34,374 bases of DNA from Jimgerdemannia flammicorona (Eukaryota), in contig RBNJ01000275.1 in assembly GCA_003990765.1 (NCBI GenBank), positions 1 to 34,374 on the forward strand, in the 5' to 3' direction. Positions 19,781-27,128 of the stretch are shown in pieces. The stretch's first letter is position 1; every line of letters begins with the position of its first letter. Below the pieces are notes generated by a model, which saw nothing but the letters and a program-made list of their open reading frames with translations, was not told the origin of the DNA and did no database searches. A program made the translations under genes and the position numbers.

Positions 19781-20042
19781 TTACTAGTGCCAGGTCGATT
19801 TTGATTACTTTCGCTTAAAATTCCTTCTAGCGTCTCTGAACATAGCATATAAGTTCACTTGTCTTTTTCTCTTCGGTTGGTTTAGAAAGAGATAAATACG
19901 AACAATAGCGCAAGTAGCAACATTAAGGCATCCGGAGATATCTATCCATAGGAGCAATACAATAACGACATGTGCATTGTTTGTCGTGTACAACTCAAAT
20001 GGGAAAAGTAAGTTACTCAAAAATAAACTCGGACAACAAGTT

Positions 20043-21626
20043 CTATGCAAATGTCTGCCTTATCTCCAGCTGCCCACCATGTGAAAGAGACGCCGCAGGC
20101 CAAATCCGTGCTGGTAAATTCCTCCACGCGACCCCATGGTCTACCCCATCAACAGTAACTTTGCAGATGCGTTGCTTCATATCCAAGAAGAAGCTCACGA
20201 CGGAACCCTTCCCGTAGCCATCATCAAACGTTAATATCGAGAAAGGATTCGCGTCGTACACGCACCCATTGCTTGCGAATCCCCACGAATTCGCCTGCAC
20301 TCCCAGCACAAGATTCTGGCCCGTGACGATAGACTGGGTGGCCAGGCCTAGGGAGACCCCCCCGGCGTTTGGGTTGCACCCGACCACGAGTACGTCCCAT
20401 GTGTACACGCCCTCGCCCTTGCACGCGCATACGGCGAGGACGGAACTGGTCGAGTGCTTGGTGATCACCTTGGGGTGGCTGACCTTGACGTTGTTATGGG
20501 ACAAGTCGAGAGCGGGACCGGTGTGGGTGTGGTCCCAGATGCAAGCATTTCCGTGCTCCCATGAGGGTGGGCAGACCGTACGGACAAGGACGTGATGGCG
20601 AAAGGCTTCGGAGAAGATTTCGCGCGGGGCGGCGGAGCCAAGGGTGTCCATGATGGTGACGAGGCGGTGCGGGCAAATGTCTTCGAAATGCATCAACGAC
20701 ATGAGGGGATTGAGTATTTCGTCTCGGTGCTCGAGGAGCCTGGTGGAGACGGCGTCTGAGATGAGCGCTTGAGCTTGAGGTTCGTTGGTAACATCATCTA
20801 CCGATACCTGTACGTCGTACTGGTATACTACCATTTTTTCAACATCCAACGAGCGCATCACTCTCTCCTTAATCTCCTTTCCGATTAGCTTTTCGTCTGG
20901 ATTTTCCGATAGGTCAAGCGCCCAGTCGAACGCCCAATCCACCACGCACAAGAACACTATATAGGCCCGAGTGGTTGGCGGGTTTATGTCTTCGAGCGGT
21001 AAATCCGACAATAGCACCGCCATCGCCTCTCTTGAAACGGTCTTCAATGTCCCAATGTTCCATTCTTGAACAAGGAAAAACTTCCGCACGGCTTCAAATA
21101 ATAACTCATTCATTTCCAGGCCGACGTCTAACGTACGTACCGCATCCGACAAAATTTCCCCAGCAAGGTGAACGTCCGCCAGATTGTCTTGGACAAATTT
21201 GACGACGAGTTGTTGCAACCGTGGTAAGAGGAAGTACTCGGCGGCCTTGTAGCACGATACGGCGTTCAGCAGGGTCAGCGAGGGGGTCTCCTCAAGATAG
21301 CAATATTCCAGCACGAGCTGTAGTTGTGTGGAGGTAATCGTGGGAAGTGGTATCTCGCGGGCCGTGGACTCACGCATAGTGCCGTACAGCATGCGATCGA
21401 ACATGTCGGAGCGCAGTGCCAGCAAGGCGCGGAACGCATGCTTTCTTGTAGCGTCATCAGAGCATATGAAGGTTACATCGCTGAGTTCCGGGTGATTGAT
21501 GCAGTGACGAAGATCTGCCTTCAGGTTGTGGCCGCGAACGTGGGGAATGAGGGTTGGTGGTGTTGATGGTGTCGTGGAGACGTGGCGATTGAGGACTGGT
21601 GGTGCCGTGGCATTGCGGGGTTCCAT
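20043..21626 (-). CDS. Intronless BTB/POZ + SPRY(B30.2) domain protein (~527 aa)
   Basis: BTB: SDVTFICSD...HAFRALLALRSDMFDRMLYGTMRES...EIPLPTI...LVLEYCY. SPRY: GVYTWDVLV...GVSLGLA...NSWGF...GSVVSFFLDMKQR...VDGVDHGVAW...IWPAASL. Confidence 0.9.
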   Translation of the reverse strand: MEPRNATAPPVLNRHVSTTPSTPPTLIPHVRGHNLKADLRHCINHPELSDVTFICSDDATRKHAFRALLALRSDMFDRMLYGTMRESTAREIPLPTITSTQLQLVLEYCYLEETPSLTLLNAVSCYKAAEYFLLPRLQQLVVKFVQDNLADVHLAGEILSDAVRTLDVGLEMNELLFEAVRKFFLVQEWNIGTLKTVSREAMAVLLSDLPLEDINPPTTRAYIVFLCVVDWAFDWALDLSENPDEKLIGKEIKERVMRSLDVEKMVVYQYDVQVSVDDVTNEPQAQALISDAVSTRLLEHRDEILNPLMSLMHFEDICPHRLVTIMDTLGSAAPREIFSEAFRHHVLVRTVCPPSWEHGNACIWDHTHTGPALDLSHNNVKVSHPKVITKHSTSSVLAVCACKGEGVYTWDVLVVGCNPNAGGVSLGLATQSIVTGQNLVLGVQANSWGFASNGCVYDANPFSILTFDDGYGKGSVVSFFLDMKQRICKVTVDGVDHGVAWRNLPARIWPAASLSHGGQLEIRQTFA

Positions 21627-21780
21627 CAAGTGTTAGGGAAGAGAGGAGTTCACCACGTGCTGAATGTCTACTTATGGCCATTTATATGTCTCGATCACGT
21701 GATAATTCCTCCAACTTAAGTGCGTGCGTACGTCTTCAACCCCTCTTCCACTCCCTCTCTCTTAAAACCTTTATCCTCTC
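21627..21780. promoter_or_regulatory. Bidirectional promoter (154 bp) between the BTB-SPRY and RING genes, with two CACGTG E-boxes (21654-21659, and the ATCACGTGAT palindrome at 21694-21703)
   Basis: Divergent ATGs at 21626 and 21781. Motifs read directly. Confidence 0.55.
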
Positions 21781-22744
21781 ATGGCAAGCTACTTTGGTAA
21801 ATACTATACCATGTTTATTGCACTGATAAATCCCCTATAATAACTCCATATCTACCCCTCTTAGACGACCTCAACATCAAGATCGACAAGAAACCTGCCT
21901 CGCGCTCCACCGTGAATGTTGACGTTTCGCACTTCATGGCGCCCTCGGGTTCCGCCGGTCAGGGGTCCCGTGCACCGGCATTTGAAAGTGACGGAATTGA
22001 CCAGTTCCTCCAAGTTGCAAAGTATATTTTCTGATTCGCCTGTGTCGGCTCGGTGACCAAACTACATGAAGGTGGATCACGAAACTGATAATATTCGTTC
22101 GCTTTTAGTCTCTTTGGTGGTTTTAGGGAACAAGCTTCAGGCGACTACGTTCAACAAGAGTTCTTGGATAATTTAATATCGCAGCTTTTGGAGGAGTCAA
22201 ACGCAAGGTAAGGACTACGCTGCTAATAGTGTTGCATGGTGACGTTGATATATACTTTAATCTCATCCCATTCATATGATGATTCAGTGCAAAAGGTCCG
22301 CCGCCGGCCTCAAAACGTTTCATTATGGATCTACCTTCAGTATCGAAATCCGCCGTTGGACCGTTAGTATCATATCCTTTTGTCTGACTCCACCTACCCA
22401 TATGTCAGTTTGAATATTCGGTTGATATTCTGTTTGCACCTAACAACCGATCGATAGGGACGAGAGCTGCACCGTCTGCAAAGACGTTTTCCACATCAGT
22501 GGCTCCAAGATCACCAAGATGCCTTGGTAAGTGTGCGGAGTTTGTTGTAGTTCGATCTTCAATCTCAAGACTGAGTGAATGACCGTTTATCCGCTTGCTT
22601 AGTGGCCATTTCTTTGACAAGGACTGTATCGTTCCCTGGCTCGAGCTTCACAATACGTGTCCCATGTGTCGAGCCGAGGTCGAGACGGAGAAGAAGGTGA
22701 AGGAGGAGGAAGAGGAGGAGCAACAGAATTGGATGTATTCATAG
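21781..22744 (+). CDS. RNF181-like RING finger E3 ubiquitin ligase; exons 21781-21796, 21865-22021, 22109-22207, 22288-22362, 22458-22526, 22603-22744 (185 aa)
   Basis: Spliced translation MASYFDDLNI...LDNLISQLLEE...GPPPASKRFIMDLP...CTVCKDVF...[27 protein letters not shown]...WMYS*. The exons sum to 558 nt, in frame. Not in the ORF track. Confidence 0.88.
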
Positions 22745-23014
22745 AAGGCCTTAGATCAGCGTGGATATATGACCCTTGTATCACATGTATTTGTACATTG
22801 ATAATTCAGCATCGAGAACTGCAATCCGCTCTCCATCCTTTCTACACTATGTATTAGCAAACAACTTATAGGAATGGCCAGCGTAGTCTATTTCAACTAT
22901 TGTCTTTAATTAAACAGGTCTGGTATTACCTACAGGCATATACAAAAATATAAAATTTCACGGCAATGGATCAGCAAAAATGTAAAACAAATGTGACAAA
23001 GCCAATTCACAATA

Positions 23015-23092
23015 TGGTGGTTCAGAACGTTGAAAATATTTTCCTCACTATGATTCGGAATTAGCATGGTACGTTAAACATCACAACCACCA
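23015..23092 (-). ncRNA. snR53: Box C/D snoRNA, snR53-like (predicted 2'-O-methylation guide for the 18S rRNA Am796 equivalent)
   Basis: 7-bp terminal stem TGGTGGT/ACCACCA, box C variant GTGATGT, guide CCATGCTAAT antisense to 18S AUUAGCAUGG, D' CCGA, C' GTGAGGA and box D CTGA. The +5 rule selects the A in UUAGC. Confidence 0.85.
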
Positions 23093-23191
23093 AGAGCCCA
23101 AAATGACCGAAGTACAGTACCTACCCGTAATATAAGGACAAAGAATGCGCACTACTTTGAGTAGTCCTTTTGAGAATTGGATGTCAGAAAG

Positions 23192-23285
23192 GAAAATCAG
23201 TGCACTATTCGAAAACCGTAACAACTGTCTCAAAAACAATCGTTTGTCATCAAACGCGATCAGCAAATTGTGTCATCATAGTTTC
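23192..23285 (-). ncRNA. Candidate orphan box C/D snoRNA
   Basis: Box C ATGATGA (23279-23273), D' CTGA (23263-23260), C' TTGATGA (23253-23247), box D CTGA (23200-23197, alternative 23187-23184) and a short GAAA/TTTC stem. It lies just downstream of a GTAAGC donor. Confidence 0.7.
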
Positions 23286-23574
23286 AGAATTTGATAATAT
23301 ATGGTAATCATATCGCAGGCTTCATCGGACTAAATAGGAGTGAATTAGGTGCTTACCGATGTCATGAGTTTCGTCGGTTGCCTTGCCGCCGAGGAGCCCG
23401 AGGGCAATGAAGACGGCGCTGTTGTTGTCGATTATGTTGACGGAAATGATAATGACGCGAGGGACTACGCCGGCGCCTGCGATGTTAGGAGCGACCCCAT
23501 GTGCGTCTTCGTGTTTAAGGCTGTATTAGGCTTTATTAGCATTCCCTCCGGTAACCAAGCCCATTGTGTGTTGT

Positions 23575-23627
23575 TTGTGTTGTGTGTGTGTGTATGTGTG
23601 TGTGTGTATGTGTGTGTGTGTGTGTGT
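23575..23627. repeat. Imperfect (GT)n microsatellite
   Basis: Read directly. Confidence 0.95.
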
Positions 23628-23754
23628 GGAATGCCATCGTGCACAATAAACCCTTGGCCATGGTTCTTATCTTGTCAAAAACCTAATGGTTTAATAAACA
23701 GAGGATCAGTACGAATCCCTCGCTAAAAAACGCAATCAACAGAAGAGGACGAAT

Positions 23755-23845
23755 GTCATGTTCAGATTCTCTTTTTGGCTGTGAGTGCTTATATTCTCGA
23801 CACGATTCTTTCCGCCTGGGGCGGCAAAGCAATCATCATGATGAC
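23755..23845 (-). ncRNA. snR67: Box C/D snoRNA, snR67/SNORD31-like (predicted guide for the LSU P-loop Gm, yeast Gm2619 / E. coli Gm2251 equivalent)
   Basis: Stem GTCAT/ATGAC, box C ATGATGA (23839-23833), guide TGCCGCCCCAG antisense to 25S CUGGGGCGGCA, D' CGGA and box D CTGA (23765-23762). The +5 rule selects the second G of UGGGG. Confidence 0.88.
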
Positions 23846-24007
23846 TTTCAAAGAATGAAAAAGTGGGAGAAGAGCCTACCTTTGGGGTTGTTGGGGGTGG
23901 AAGAAGGAGAGATGTTTTTTTTTTATTTTTCCCGAAAGGTGGTGTGTGATGTCATCCCAGATCCAAAATTTGTTTCTGGTTTGGTGGCCTTCCTTCACGA
24001 AACAACC

Positions 24008-24795
24008 ATGTTTGCACGCGCCTTGAGCCCAGCGTTCGGAGCCTTACCCAAAGTCCTGCCTGCCTCGGTTTTCGGTCGCATCGGTGGGTCTTTGAGTGAG
24101 GGAGCCTGTTGAGTATTGTACAAGTCTAGTCTCGCTGAATGTCGTCCAACTTCTCTCCTTATTGTGTACAGCGGTGGCACCTTTTATGCAATCGCAGCTG
24201 TCTCGATATCTCGTTCCGGCGGTTGCTGCAGGTAAAACGATTTGCGTGTATTTTTGACGCCCTTCAATGGAAAGATTTGAGTCTCTCCCCCCAAGACAGT
24301 GCCTCACCCTTTCGCATTTTATTGAAATTAGTTTCCCATATCCACACCACCCGCCGCGTGACACCATCACCTCAAGCTCAACCCGCGAGTTCCACTACCG
24401 CACTGGCTACCTTGGATGCGACGACTAAAGACGCTGTCTCCCTTCTCCGATCCCAGCTTCGTTACTACGCCATCGTGGAGATCATGGGCCGCCCTCACCT
24501 CATCACCAAGAATGATCTTGTGATAGTGAATCGGCTGCTAGACGTTGAAGTCGGCGACGTCGTGGAGCTAAACCGGGTGCGGGAGCTCGGTTCCCGGGAC
24601 TACACGATCAAGGGCTCCCCGTACGTGAGCGAAAAATTCTACACCATCAGAGCGACGGTGGTGGAGCATACCAAGAGTCGGATGATCCGGGTCGTGAAGA
24701 AGAAGCGAAGAAAGAATTACAAGAGGACGGTGACGCACAAGCAGACCCATACGTCGTTGAGGATCGCGGAGTTGGATATCAATAAGTTGGATTAG
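24008..24795 (+). CDS. MRPL49: Mitochondrial ribosomal protein bL21m; exons 24008-24083, 24172-24231, 24332-24795 (199 aa)
   Basis: Presequence-like N-terminus and L21 domain YYAIVEIMGRPHLITKNDLV...RVRELGSRDYTIKGSPYV...VVEHTKS...KKKRRKNYKRTVTHKQTHTSLRI. Exons sum to 600 nt. Confidence 0.93.
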
Positions 24796-25278
24796 CCGAT
24801 TCTTTTTGGGGTAGAGTGTCTTGGAATAGAATGTAGGTCATTGAAAAAAGTAAAATGATACGGACGATATTGTTGGGCAGTCGACTCAATTCTTCCTTCT
24901 GCTGTTATGAAACTGATGTTAGTCAAAATGTATAAAGCTCATCTAGATATTGTGATAATATTGATATTTTTCGGAAATCTCGTATAAAGACAGAACCTAT
25001 GACGGATTCAATATAGCTATATATCCACAGTATAACTGAAAGAATCACGTAAACACCACTATGCTTTCGAAGGCGCTTTATTTATTACCGAAAAAAAAAA
25101 AGAAAAAAAGAATATACCTCAAGGTCCCATTTATTGTATATACGAAGAAACTCACACGTATGAAGGAGAGCTAATCACGAGCTCGTCGCTTCGATAAATT
25201 TGTACTGAATCCTATTTTGATTTCCAAAATGCACGTCCTTTTTGCGCGCTGCTACCTGTCTTTCAACATCGAGTCCGT

Positions 25279-26736
25279 TCACTCGGACTTCACTCTTTCT
25301 TGGCGAAACTCCTCGCCTACTTGCTCGCCTATTTGTTCGGCCCGTCTCTTGATTTCTCCTCCCATACGTTTGCCGGCCTCGATGAAGTTATGCTTTGTGG
25401 GCTGTTTCTGACGCTGGCGCTTATCGCGGACGTCGTAAAAGAGGGAGCCCTGGTGGCGACGGAGGAAAATGCTCTGTAAATGTTTTACTTTACCGCTAAT
25501 TAAGGCATTTATGCACACAGACAGCGGTGCTGGAATGGATATCGCAATGAAGGAAGTCAAAGATTATTATACTCACGTCAAACACCCCACGGATGTCTTC
25601 CTTGTATATTTTCCCGTTGTGTCCGATAAGGAGGTAGGTTGTGAGCCATTCGAAATACATGGCAAACCTATTTGGGGGTGCACCATTGATTGCAAGTCTG
25701 TCTTCGTGGGCATGTAGACTATATTACGATAAATGCATAAGAATTACCATCCAAACGGATCGGCAACATTCCGTTGACCTTTGATGAAGTCCAACAGCTC
25801 CCAAAAAGTCATGGTCTGCCCATTGGCATCCCTTCGAGCGAACTTAGAGAAGATCTGTTCGAATTTCTCGGGAACGAAGCGGCCCTATAAAACATCAAAC
25901 AAATGGCGAATTAAGCCTTTGTTGCCGCATAGGTCGTCGAAGAACTCAAAAATAGTATGGAATGTGCCCCACGAACCTCAGGATCATAGGTCTCGGAATC
26001 CGATCCGTGCTAACGCATAAAGACGAGGTGAATAGGCAAAATCGGCAAATTGATATAGAAGACTGCGAAGTATTTGGTAATTAAACCTTAGCCCTGTGCA
26101 TGTTCTTAGCGTAGATCCAGAAGAACGGATTCGGGAACCAGAAGTCTTGCGTGACCCAGGAGAAAGATAAGTGAATAACGACCATAGCGGCGAGTGAAAA
26201 AATAAGATTGAACCCCAAGTCGTTAAAGCCTGTCGTCGAAATTTTAGAGCGCGTGAGACTTTGTTTTGCATCTTGCATAAATCACACAATGAGTCAGTAA
26301 CTCACCGACAAGCGTGTCCCACGGCGTGATGATGCCGTCGTGATCACGGTCGAAGAAGCTGACATGTTGTTGCAGAACCTGTATGGTTGAGAATGGGCGT
26401 AACATGACAATCAGCATCAATATCACAGTGGCCTCGTTATCCAGGCTGGTGAATCCGCCACGCACCGTTCTCTCGTCCTTGATAGCCTCATAGTTCTTTG
26501 TGCCGTTCGGCATCTCCTTACTGACAGCCTCGGATGCACGGGGAATGGCTGCGCAGGATAGAGATGATAGACTCTTCAAAATTTGAATTAGGGCGACGAT
26601 TGAAACGCGAATCGCTATGCCTACCCGGATGATCGATATACTGTTCTAGATCTGTCGGAACAGGCCTTTTGGAGGTGACTGGGGCCCTAGCCGCGCTTGT
26701 TTTGATATAGGTGACTTCTCCGATTTTTGTAGACAT
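25279..26736 (-). CDS. Caleosin/peroxygenase (lipid-droplet EF-hand protein), multi-exon
   Basis: VLQQHVSFFDRDHDGIITPWDT (His plus EF hand), hydrophobic proline-knot region WFPNPFFWIY, HRAKHGSDSETYD, RFVPEKFEQIFSK, DPFGW, EW and GSLFY. TATA-like TATATA ~50 bp upstream. Confidence 0.93.
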
Positions 26737-26904
26737 GTTGACGGTTGTTGCTTGATGGCGAAGGTAGGAAGATGTGCATGAGCTATATATAAGGGCGGTC
26801 GACGTAGGCATCGAGCAAGATGGCGTGGTCGAACAAGATGTTGGCGTTTGATGTCATTTCAAATATACGCGTGGCGCGAATAGGAACATCCATTCCAGGC
26901 ATCG

Positions 26905-26992
26905 CTCTAGACCGCCAAAGCATTTTCACATGCTTGCATGAAAAAATCACCAAACTATTTCTCTAGACCCGCCAGATCATTTTCACATGCTT
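26905..26992. repeat. Imperfect ~31-bp direct repeat (CTCTAGACC(C)GCCA..CATTTTCACATGCTT) upstream of caleosin
   Basis: Copies at 26905-26935 and 26961-26992. Confidence 0.85.
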
Positions 26993-27128
26993 ACAAGAGG
27001 GCCACTGGATCATCTCACGATTAATTACATTACAATCTCTGCGATAATAACTAGCTTGGAACTCTGAATTTCTATGGCAGACTATGTCCATCTACCCTGA
27101 ATCGTCCAACGCATTTCCATTTTGTGAT

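Follow-up and report, generated by a model that had tools for sequence, protein, structure and literature searches.

In Saccharomyces cerevisiae, snR67 and snR53 are described as a polycistronic unit, in which snR67 is the guide for 25S Gm2619 and snR53 the guide for 18S Am796. The locus analysed here likewise has members of both families on one transcript, with the snR67-like one 5' of the snR53-like one, but differs from the yeast cluster, which has neither introns nor a middle member. Liu et al. 2009 (PMC2780460) describe the conservation of five clusters between yeast and Neurospora, in UHG-like hosts whose introns each carry a single snoRNA. The present host, as predicted, would resemble the N. 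crassa ones in this respect. In both cases, moreover, the ORFs are short and each unit is flanked by canonical splice signals. The N. crassa snoRNAs CD26 (snR67 family) and CD11 (snR53) are both intronic and both located on chromosome I, and CD11 has a dual 18S/U6 D' guide, as is predicted for the third unit below. The CD26 guide, in contrast, has diverged and is assigned to U2-Gm183, whereas our first unit retains a U31-type guide. The N. crassa snoRNA list contains no guide for the 18S site predicted for our middle unit (PMC2780460).

Non-coding, multi-intron hosts similar to the one described here are also known from mammals (UHG/GAS5) and from the fungal clusters I–III of Luo et al. 2013 (PMC3596301), which are reported there as intronic in filamentous Ascomycota, Basidiomycota and Rhizopus. 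That survey covers the snR72-78, snR57-55-61 and snR41-70-51 clusters, and not snR67-snR53. A preliminary reading of the DNA, made from the sequence only, had called the present arrangement "hidden". This description is not warranted, since fungal snoRNA clusters that are divided among the introns of non-coding hosts, and conserved with those of yeast, are already in print (PMC2780460, PMC3596301).

The stretch of DNA analysed (the window) comprises 34,374 nt of Jimgerdemannia flammicorona contig RBNJ01000275.1. It contains three co-oriented, minus-strand box C/D snoRNA units in one spliced, apparently non-coding host, confirming the central claim of the sequence-only reading. The features are as follows, in the direction of transcription after the host itself:

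22926..23883, minus strand: host transcription unit, mapped core, from RNA contigs of runs X1, X2 and X3
23683..23879, minus strand: intron 1, 197 nt, predicted from sequence signals; donor GTAGGC, AG at 23684-23683
23755..23845, minus strand: unit 1, snR67/SNORD31-like box C/D snoRNA, from Rfam, the relatives' profile, the fold and the scanner
23357..23682, minus strand: exon 2, 3' end at 23357 fixed by an RNA joint; CA microsatellite at about 23565-23635
23167..23356, minus strand: intron 2, 190 nt, confirmed by RNA joints in two runs; donor GTAAGC, AG at 23168-23167
23255..23317, minus strand: unit 2, the middle box C/D snoRNA, from the relatives' profile, features shared with locus L103 and the fold
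23125..23166, minus strand: exon 3, 42 nt, 5' end confirmed (joint 23167/23166), 3' end predicted from donor GTAGGT at 23124
22930..23124, minus strand: intron 3, 195 nt, predicted in the same way as intron 1; donor GTAGGT, AG at 22931-22930
23015..23092, minus strand: unit 3, snR53/snoR53Y-like box C/D snoRNA, from Rfam, guide complementarity, the fold and the scanner

RNA contigs from X1, X2 and X3 together span the host core. X1 and X2 come from two different studies, while X3 is a root metatranscriptome that contributed two small contigs only. Neighbouring genes display GT..AG joints in these runs, which are therefore RNA. The contigs used were assembled ones, which are blind to small RNAs, RNA ends and strand, and from which rare forms drop out. 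One X1 contig joins 23165 to 23356, and one X2 contig joins 23167 to 23362 with three other letters in between. The host joint reads CT..AC on the plus strand (seen in X1), and the transcript is therefore from the minus strand. The intron removed, intron 2, encloses the middle unit, has a branch-like CTGAC at 23187-23183, and is the longest of the 14 confirmed introns between 20000 and 27000. Exon 2 has the deepest contig coverage of the host locus (X1 and X2). The longest ATG-initiated ORF in a modelled spliced host RNA with assumed ends is 41 aa, largely a translation of the CA repeat, and the host accordingly appears to be non-coding, as had been proposed.

Each unit has C, D' and D boxes and a terminal stem, as had been claimed, and all three stems appear in the minimum-energy folds. 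The C box, D box and short terminal stem are canonical or near-canonical in units 1 and 3, while unit 2 has a variant C box. In unit 1, the C box is ATGATGA (23839-23833), D' is CGGA (23814-23811) and D is CTGA (23765-23762), with a D' guide at 23827-23815 and a 5-bp stem, GTCAT/ATGAC, between 23845-23841 and 23759-23755. The unit scored 27.3 bits against Rfam snR67 (RF01177, clan CL00053; E = 0.005 in a 1.6-kb search), below the gathering threshold of 55. In this alignment, the D' guide matched that of the snR67 consensus, and the two D' boxes were in register. The guide core was also found in eight relatives, and a profile made from eight metagenomic relatives (R2) had its best match in the whole window at 23841-23774, that is, in unit 1 (E = 0.0036). 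The predicted target of this guide is the large-subunit G modified by snR67/U31 (yeast Gm2619). A text search for the complement of the guide returned only unlabelled or mislabelled sequences, including an unlabelled LSU-like contig. No counterpart of the D guide that yeast snR67 has for 25S Um2724 was found in unit 1; in that part of the Rfam alignment, matches are few and posterior probabilities low. According to the literature, Um2724 is a target in Saccharomycotina only.

Unit 3 has a GTGATGT C box (23084-23078), CCGA as D' (23058-23055), TGAGGA as C' (23047-23042) and CTGA as D (23025-23022), with a D' guide at 23070-23059 and a terminal stem of 7–8 bp (23092-23085 with 23022-23015). It matched Rfam snoR53Y over its full length with 41.9 bits (E = 4.7e-6 in a 1.6-kb search), missing the gathering threshold of 43 by 1.1 bits, and its 11-letter guide core is identical to the snR53/snoR53Y consensus (RF00338/RF01279, clan CL00080). 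The guide complements the published U6 target fragment of another species, N. crassa. It also complements the published N. crassa 18S fragment, except for a single U-for-C difference, where the guide requires U and N. crassa has C; at this position, the N. crassa 18S and the N. crassa guide both differ. Unit 3 is predicted to have two targets: U6, at the site known from N. crassa as U6-Am47, and the A of the small subunit that snR53 modifies (yeast Am796). The family assignments made for the outer units from the sequence were thus borne out by conserved guides and by sub-gathering Rfam matches, supplemented for unit 1 by the R2 profile. The Rfam search that had been suggested as a check returned both outer families, but not at gathering level, and no family for the middle unit.

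In 9 of 128 metagenome pattern matches (L021, L022, L036, L041, L051, L062, L063, L064 and L068), an snR67-like unit again shares its strand with an snR53-like one and lies upstream of it. Middle units were present in L022, L051, L062, L036 and L064; L068 has a copy from which the guide is deleted, and L103 has a middle unit upstream of its snR53-like unit. The proposed linkage of snR67 and snR53 with an extra member between them is thus seen elsewhere. L041 has the linkage but not the middle unit. The loci with the recurring order of snR67-like, middle and snR53-like units look fungal. A blastn search of 120 fetched loci found no close relatives of the host region, the only match being to a repeat in L048. 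Synteny with bL21m, also suggested as a check, was not found by tblastn with the C-terminal 149 aa in any of the 120 loci, whose flanks extend to 3 kb at the longest and are far shorter in many cases.

The middle unit, unit 2, has a variant C box, ATGATTA (23311-23305), followed by D' (CTGA, 23287-23284), C' (ATGATGA, 23279-23273) and D (CTGA, 23263-23260), and a 5-bp terminal stem, TGCGA/TCGCG, formed by 23317-23313 and 23259-23255. It matched no Rfam family. Nor did the middle units of the relatives match any family when eight relatives' loci, as well as the L022 and L103 middle units, were searched, the best score being 17.7 bits against a gathering threshold of 75. A profile made from five relatives' middle units with the window excluded (R1) nevertheless had its best match in the whole window at 23306-23273, in unit 2 (E = 0.0017). 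The sequence-only reading had described this unit as an orphan. However, the 12-letter complement of the core of its D' guide (23304-23288) is found in a printed Candida albicans 18S 5' probe, and with the 18S fragment of that species the guide forms 11 pairs, including one G.U, in the correct register. With this 18S complementarity in its guide core, the unit is unlikely to be an orphan. The predicted target is the 18S U at about position 122 (Candida/yeast numbering), just 5' of a conserved GAT in the 5' domain. We take this U to be equivalent to plant Um123 and human Um121. If so, the middle unit would play the same role as human SNORD4A/B (18S Um121) and Arabidopsis At1gCDbox51.1 (Um123), although no sequence likeness between it and any Rfam family was detected. 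In a published table, methylation of the Um121/Um123 type is absent from budding yeast.

We considered the possibility that the middle unit is a decaying relic without a working particle, leaving a cluster that is functionally a two-member snR67-snR53 pair. Its C box has a T where G is canonical, and under the pairing rules of the kink-turn this T would form a mismatch with the D-box C. The distance from C' to D is no more than 9 nt, which leaves a D guide of just that length. Furthermore, Sordariomycete-like loci differ in the half of the guide nearest D', which in these loci no longer complements the printed 18S, while the D' guide present in L036 has been lost entirely from L068, and L041 lacks a middle unit. 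On the other hand, the C-box variant, the 5' stem strand, the guide core and D' are all kept in L103 in spite of a very different base composition (0.21 GC vs. 0.46). The terminal stem is likewise kept, the changes in its 3' strand being such that they preserve pairing, and the guide of unit 2 itself still pairs in register with the printed 18S fragment. A relic is consequently a somewhat unlikely explanation, albeit one with several observations in its favour.

In a bolder joint reading, which we regard as somewhat less likely than not, unit 2 represents a family outside Rfam that guides 2'-O-methylation of an 18S U and is marked by the conserved ATGATTA C box, and the U is that of plant Um123 and human Um121. 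In L103, the first letter of the D box is changed in such a way that pairing with the variant C box would be restored. The cluster would then have had three members ancestrally, with later losses: budding yeast would have lost both the middle snoRNA and the 18S methylation, and the Sordariomycete-like lineages would have been caught midway through losing the middle unit. Likeness between the guide region of unit 2 and the snR53 guide would mark unit 2 as an old tandem duplicate of snR53. The family may already be listed in the supplements to a fungal snoRNAome study.

The GT donors at 23879, 23356 and 23124 are located where the sequence-only reading had placed them, with AG acceptors at 23683 (or 23723), 23167 and 22930. 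Its proposal of a spliced host with one unit in each intron was upheld for intron 2 by the joint at 23356 in two studies, but joints for introns 1 (23879/23683) and 3 (23124/22930) were not found among the contig pieces listed. Thus, one of the three introns has been seen spliced; the other two are predicted, and one of these has been seen retained. The middle interval might therefore be the only true intron, in which case units 1 and 3 would be cut from an unspliced polycistronic precursor by endo- and exonucleases and their GT and AG signals would go unused. In addition to the missing joints, one X1 contig (contig 3) from which intron 2 has been removed continues unspliced through intron 3 to 22926, and two contigs (X1 contig 5 and X3 contig 16) read across the intron 1 acceptor at 23683. 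Yeast processes its snR67-snR53 pair without splicing, and de-intronised clusters are described in PMC3596301. According to the same paper, however, hosts of this kind are spliced stepwise from 5' to 3', and retention of downstream introns is therefore expected. Moreover, assembled contigs drop rare forms and cannot prove absence. All three intervals are alike in size (190–197 nt, compared to 68–127 nt for the other 13 confirmed introns between 20000 and 27000) and in spacing, with each unit located 72–89 nt upstream of its own 3' splice site, which is predicted for introns 1 and 3. The hexamers at the intron 1 and intron 3 donors are similar to those at confirmed donors nearby, and GTAGGC of intron 1 is also used by a confirmed neighbouring intron. 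Intron 1 has a branch-like TACTGAT at 23711-23705, with an alternative AG at 23724-23723, and one of the X2 contigs stops only a few bases away from the donor predicted for exon 3, which weakly hints at a branch in the assembly graph. A host in which the middle intron alone is spliced is thus improbable, and the locus is likely to be a fungal host gene for snoRNAs, of the same type as UHG and GAS5, with one box C/D snoRNA in each of three introns.

A longer, overlapping form of the middle snoRNA, of about 84 nt, can be drawn with a C box ATGATGA at 23279, D' at 23263, C' at 23252 and a D box CTGA at 23200-23197. All four boxes are canonical in this form, which has a weak Rfam snoZ266 match at 23207-23290 (17.9 bits, E = 5.7). 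In the fold, however, no terminal stem joins its ends, and C and D' are only 9 nt apart. Between its D box, which would sit beside the branch-like CTGAC, and the confirmed acceptor there would be about 30 nt, rather than the 72–89 nt seen in the other units, and the relatives' profile aligns to the upstream form instead. This candidate (23284-23193) is very unlikely and was rejected for its lack of a stem, for its wrong spacing and because homology supports 23317-23255.

Both strands of the 34-kb window were scanned for a canonical C box with CTGA 45–105 nt downstream and a stem of at least 5 bp. There were two matches, units 1 and 3, compared to a mean of 0.73 and a maximum of 3 in 100 first-order Markov simulations, and the count alone is therefore weak. 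The fold energies of the three units were no better than those of shuffles (z from -0.5 to -1.3), and there were no Rfam matches at gathering thresholds in the whole window. A chance origin of the box-like motifs, in sequence that is simply intergenic or untranslated, would be allowed by the scanner count and the sub-gathering scores. It is nevertheless hardly credible, given the conservation of guides with curated Rfam families, the relatives' profiles that land exactly on units 1 and 2, the recurrence of the three-unit order in independent loci, and the intron spliced around the middle unit.

In the mechanism that we propose for the three-intron host gene, RNA polymerase II would transcribe the minus-strand precursor from a region shared with the divergent bL21m gene. 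This precursor would contain one box C/D snoRNA in each intron of ≈190–197 nt, at the spacing from the 3' splice site given above. Following established snoRNP biology, splicing and debranching would be followed by exonucleolytic trimming of each intron down to a particle in which the C/D kink-turn is bound by Snu13, Nop56, Nop58 and Nop1/fibrillarin, the methylase. Each guide would go on to pair with its target RNA, in which the nucleotide facing position 5 of the guide, counted upstream from D or D', would receive a 2'-O-methyl group. The mature RNA ends and all of the methylations are thus predictions of this scheme.

The general architecture of such loci and its evolution have already been published, and the present host gene will therefore not surprise a specialist; the point of wider interest is the middle unit alone. 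The locus is a further annotated snoRNA host gene, from a fungal genome that lacks annotation. Taxonomic leads from two neighbours differ, one pointing to Mucoromycota and the other to Basidiomycota. The linkage of snR67 with snR53, known from yeast and apparently from Neurospora, is shared by this fungus and by several uncultured ones. Should the target of the middle unit be the 18S U whose methylation is found in plants and humans and is missing from budding yeast, fungi would have a candidate guide for that site. The cluster would then also illustrate how a member can disappear in one lineage after another.

The minus strand at 22930-23880 reads as three co-oriented box C/D units:

23845-23755, minus strand: unit 1, snR67/SNORD31-like, with C box ATGATGA, D' CGGA, D CTGA and a 5-bp terminal stem
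23317-23255, minus strand: unit 2, the middle unit in the reading adopted here, with stem TGCGA/TCGCG, C-box variant ATGATTA, D' CTGA, C' ATGATGA and D CTGA
23092-23015, minus strand: unit 3, snR53/snoR53Y-like, with C box GTGATGT, D' CCGA, a weak C' TGAGGA and D CTGA

The stem of unit 3 is 7-8 bp long and directly flanks the boxes, while unit 2 has spacers of 17 nt between the C variant and D' and 9 nt between C' and D. All three terminal stems were present in the minimum-energy folds. The fold energies were not better than those of shuffled sequences (z = -0.5 to -1.3), as is usual for box C/D RNAs. At curated thresholds, the whole window gave no Rfam match. When 22600-24200 was searched with E-value reporting, unit 3 matched snoR53Y over its full length (41.9 bits, E = 4.7e-6, gathering 43) and unit 1 matched snR67 (27.3 bits, E = 0.005, gathering 55), with the D' guide aligned to the family consensus in both; the middle region had generic weak matches only. 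The two families expected from the sequence-only reading were thus recovered, but below gathering in both cases. A simple box and stem scanner gave two matches in all across the 34-kb window, at units 1 and 3. In 100 Markov simulations, the mean was 0.73 and the maximum 3, and the count is weak evidence on its own. The case against chance is instead carried by the conserved guides and the relatives. A profile of snR67-like units from eight relatives (R2) had its best match in the whole window, both strands, at 23841-23774 (E = 0.0036; next, 0.33). The best match of a profile of middle units from five relatives, with the window left out (R1), was at 23306-23273 (E = 0.0017), corresponding to the D' guide, D' and C' of the adopted unit 2. 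Boxes, stems, family-aligned guides and relatives' profiles together confirm the three units proposed initially.

Targets were compared using printed RNA fragments of other species. For N. crassa CD11, duplexes are printed with both 18S (Am793) and U6 (Am47) (Liu et al. 2009, PMC2780460, supplement). The unit 3 guide forms ten Watson-Crick pairs and a terminal G.U with the U6 fragment, in the same register as CD11. Apart from a single position at which both N. crassa 18S and the CD11 guide differ, it complements the 18S fragment as well. In unit 1, the U31/snR67 guide core is retained, and D' stands in the register of the Rfam consensus. The snR67 target in yeast is Gm2619, a P-site position that is also conserved in E. 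coli and human, and the fungal snoRNAome paper predicts the snR67 D' target across Dikarya, three Pezizomycotina classes excepted. The complement of the unit 1 guide was found in a contig of an earthworm transcriptome paper (PMC5327576). The 3' half of unit 1 contains an AGCCAAA motif (23782-23776, minus strand) that is conserved between the window, Pezizomycotina-like loci and the yeast consensus (alignment A2). The earthworm contig has the complement of this motif immediately 5' of the guide's target, so the motif may be an accessory pairing element. We take this contig to be large-subunit rRNA; the paper itself gives no such label.

The middle region permits two overlapping box C/D readings. 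The longer one, from ATGATGA at 23279 to CTGA at 23200, does not form a terminal stem in the fold, leaves a C-to-D' gap of just 9 nt, and would end some 30 nt short of the confirmed acceptor, beside a branch-like CTGAC. The reading at 23317-23255 was preferred because of its conservation in metagenome locus L103 (0.21 GC), where R1 also matches a middle unit (16.5 bits), about 250 nt upstream of an snR53-like unit. L103 and the window have the 5' stem strand, C-box variant, guide core and D' in common, and the two differences in the 3' stem strand both preserve pairing. In L103 (349-430, minus strand), the ATGATTA variant occurs together with a D-like ATGA rather than the CTGA retained in the window; by kink-turn rules, this ATGA would presumably restore the pair broken by the variant.

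The middle unit had been called an orphan. A full-text search for the 12-letter reverse complement of the L103/L022 guide core, in any of three forms, found it in five papers. The string occurs in a C. albicans 18S 5' probe (letters 104-115) and also in an antisense small-subunit-like contig. With D' as anchor, guide position 5 lies opposite probe letter 107, which we take to be 18S U122 by the probe's offset in 18S, checked against the known Am28. The window's own guide pairs with the matching 18S stretch over 11 positions, including one G.U. With this predicted 18S target, the orphan label is probably wrong for the middle unit. In Sordariomycete-like guides, the half nearest D' does not fit the 18S fragment; L022 and L051 have a D guide in common that is absent from the window. 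Fungal U122 presumably corresponds to the plant Um123/human Um121 site, judging from 18S alignments. Plant Um123 is equated with human Um121 (guides SNORD4A/B), and budding yeast is without it.

The next-best R1 matches (8.2-10.7 bits) were snR53-like units, in the window (23083-23037, minus strand), L012, L068, L103, L077, L041 and L063, and never snR67-like units. In Sordariomycete-like loci, the D' guide regions of the middle and snR53-like units are alike at about 14 of 18 letters. An old tandem duplication of snR53 may have given rise to the middle unit.

A pattern of the snR53 C box, guide and D' matched at least 120 metagenome loci. None of the 120 listed was close to the window by blastn, and none had bL21m in its flanks, which reach 3 kb at most. 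Among the 128 pattern matches listed, 78 had at least 500 nt upstream, and nine had an snR67-like unit in the same orientation no more than 2 kb upstream (L021, L022, L036, L041, L051, L062, L063, L064 and L068), compared to none with such a unit on the opposite strand. These represent fewer than nine independent lineages, given that L036 and L068 are near-duplicates of each other and L012 apparently overlaps L068. On visual inspection, each unit in these nine loci is flanked by a GT donor and a branch/AG acceptor. A middle box C/D unit is found between the outer two in L022, L051, L062, L036 and L064 (L063 is ambiguous) and, with its D' guide deleted, in L068; L041 is without one. Comparison of the near-identical Sordariomycete-like L068 (3192-3238, minus strand) and L036 (2773-2840, plus strand) showed that the whole guide was cleanly removed, and the L068 unit looks like a snoRNA in decay. 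L021 (2980-4330, minus strand, 0.28 GC) carries a five-member same-strand array over 1.3 kb: snR67/U31-like, U14 (SNORD14, 55.1 bits), two C/D-like units, one weakly like snoMe28S-Am982, and snR53-like. U14, which in yeast is paired with snR190, is thus placed between snR67 and snR53 in this lineage.

Three sequencing runs contain the stretch (X1, X2 and X3, the last a root metatranscriptome), and their contigs were placed on 20000-27000. The predicted host introns and the neighbouring genes are:

23879-23683, minus strand: predicted intron 1, 197 nt, donor GTAGGC
23124-22930, minus strand: predicted intron 3, 195 nt, donor GTAGGT
20043-21629, minus strand: BTB/SPRY protein gene
21797-22930, plus strand: convergent gene, five confirmed GT..AG introns (joints in 21797-22602)
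about 260 bp upstream of the host, plus strand: mitochondrial bL21 gene (Pfam Ribosomal_L21p, E = 7e-26), one 100-nt intron
25450-26624, minus strand: very strongly expressed gene (contig depths in thousands), seven confirmed short introns

The X1 and X2 contigs are RNA, with 13 GT..AG or CT..AC joints in these neighbours. An X1 joint skips 23167-23356 with CT..AC on the plus strand, corresponding to a 190-nt minus-strand GT..AG intron, 23356-23167. The donor at 23356 named in the sequence-only reading is thus used, both here and in a matching joint in X2, from a different study; three other letters at the end of exon 2 in X2 are most simply a strain difference. Of the proposed three-intron host, intron 2 is therefore established, but introns 1 and 3 had no joints among the contig pieces listed, which show presence, not absence. 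The X1 contig with the intron 2 joint continues unspliced from 23167 to 22926, across unit 3, and X1 and X3 contigs cross 23683 unspliced. GTAGGC serves as the donor of a nearby confirmed intron. At 190-197 nt, the one confirmed and two predicted host introns are all conspicuously long next to the 68-127 nt of the remaining 13 confirmed ones. The distances from the 3' ends of units 1, 2 and 3 to the acceptors (72, 89 and 85 nt) are close to the reported optimum for intronic snoRNAs. In the model spliced host RNA, the longest ATG ORF is 41 aa and runs through a CA microsatellite in exon 2. This repeat (about 70 nt, 23565-23635) was skipped in read matching; contigs break there, and it yields a spurious plus-strand 125-aa ORF (23349-23726) and most of the 41-aa ORF.

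The host and bL21m are divergent (23880-24139 between them) and may share a bidirectional promoter. An A run followed by a pyrimidine-rich stretch immediately precedes the first donor. The X2 contig of the convergent gene ends at 22930, the predicted intron 3 acceptor, so the last host exon would overlap its 3' end in antisense. For the BTB protein, Mucoromycota supply the most Atlas look-alikes; for bL21m, Basidiomycota do. The source is accordingly taken to be a fungus, probably not an ascomycete.

Mitrovich et al. 2010 reportedly described intron loss in yeast snoRNA hosts. Yeast snR67-snR53 is one of five polycistronic units, and snR67 and snR53 are traced across fungi in the snoRNAome paper. 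Liu et al. 2009 (PMC2780460) give five of six N. crassa C/D clusters as conserved with yeast, with one snoRNA per intron in alternatively spliced, UHG-like hosts whose ORFs span just 159-267 bp. Luo et al. 2013 (PMC3596301) describe three other clusters, whose snoRNAs lie in introns in filamentous Ascomycota, Basidiomycota and Rhizopus but were de-intronised in Saccharomyces, and stepwise splicing that leaves downstream introns retained. With these yeast, Neurospora and other fungal clusters published, both the architecture and the family assignments were already known, as was the conservation between yeast and Neurospora. In the texts consulted on fungal snoRNAs, neither this locus, nor a multi-lineage middle member, nor its predicted 18S target seems to be described. 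The initial interpretation was right in outline, with one of three introns demonstrated and the orphan status of the middle unit doubtful. The locus adds modestly to a known type of intronic snoRNA cluster.
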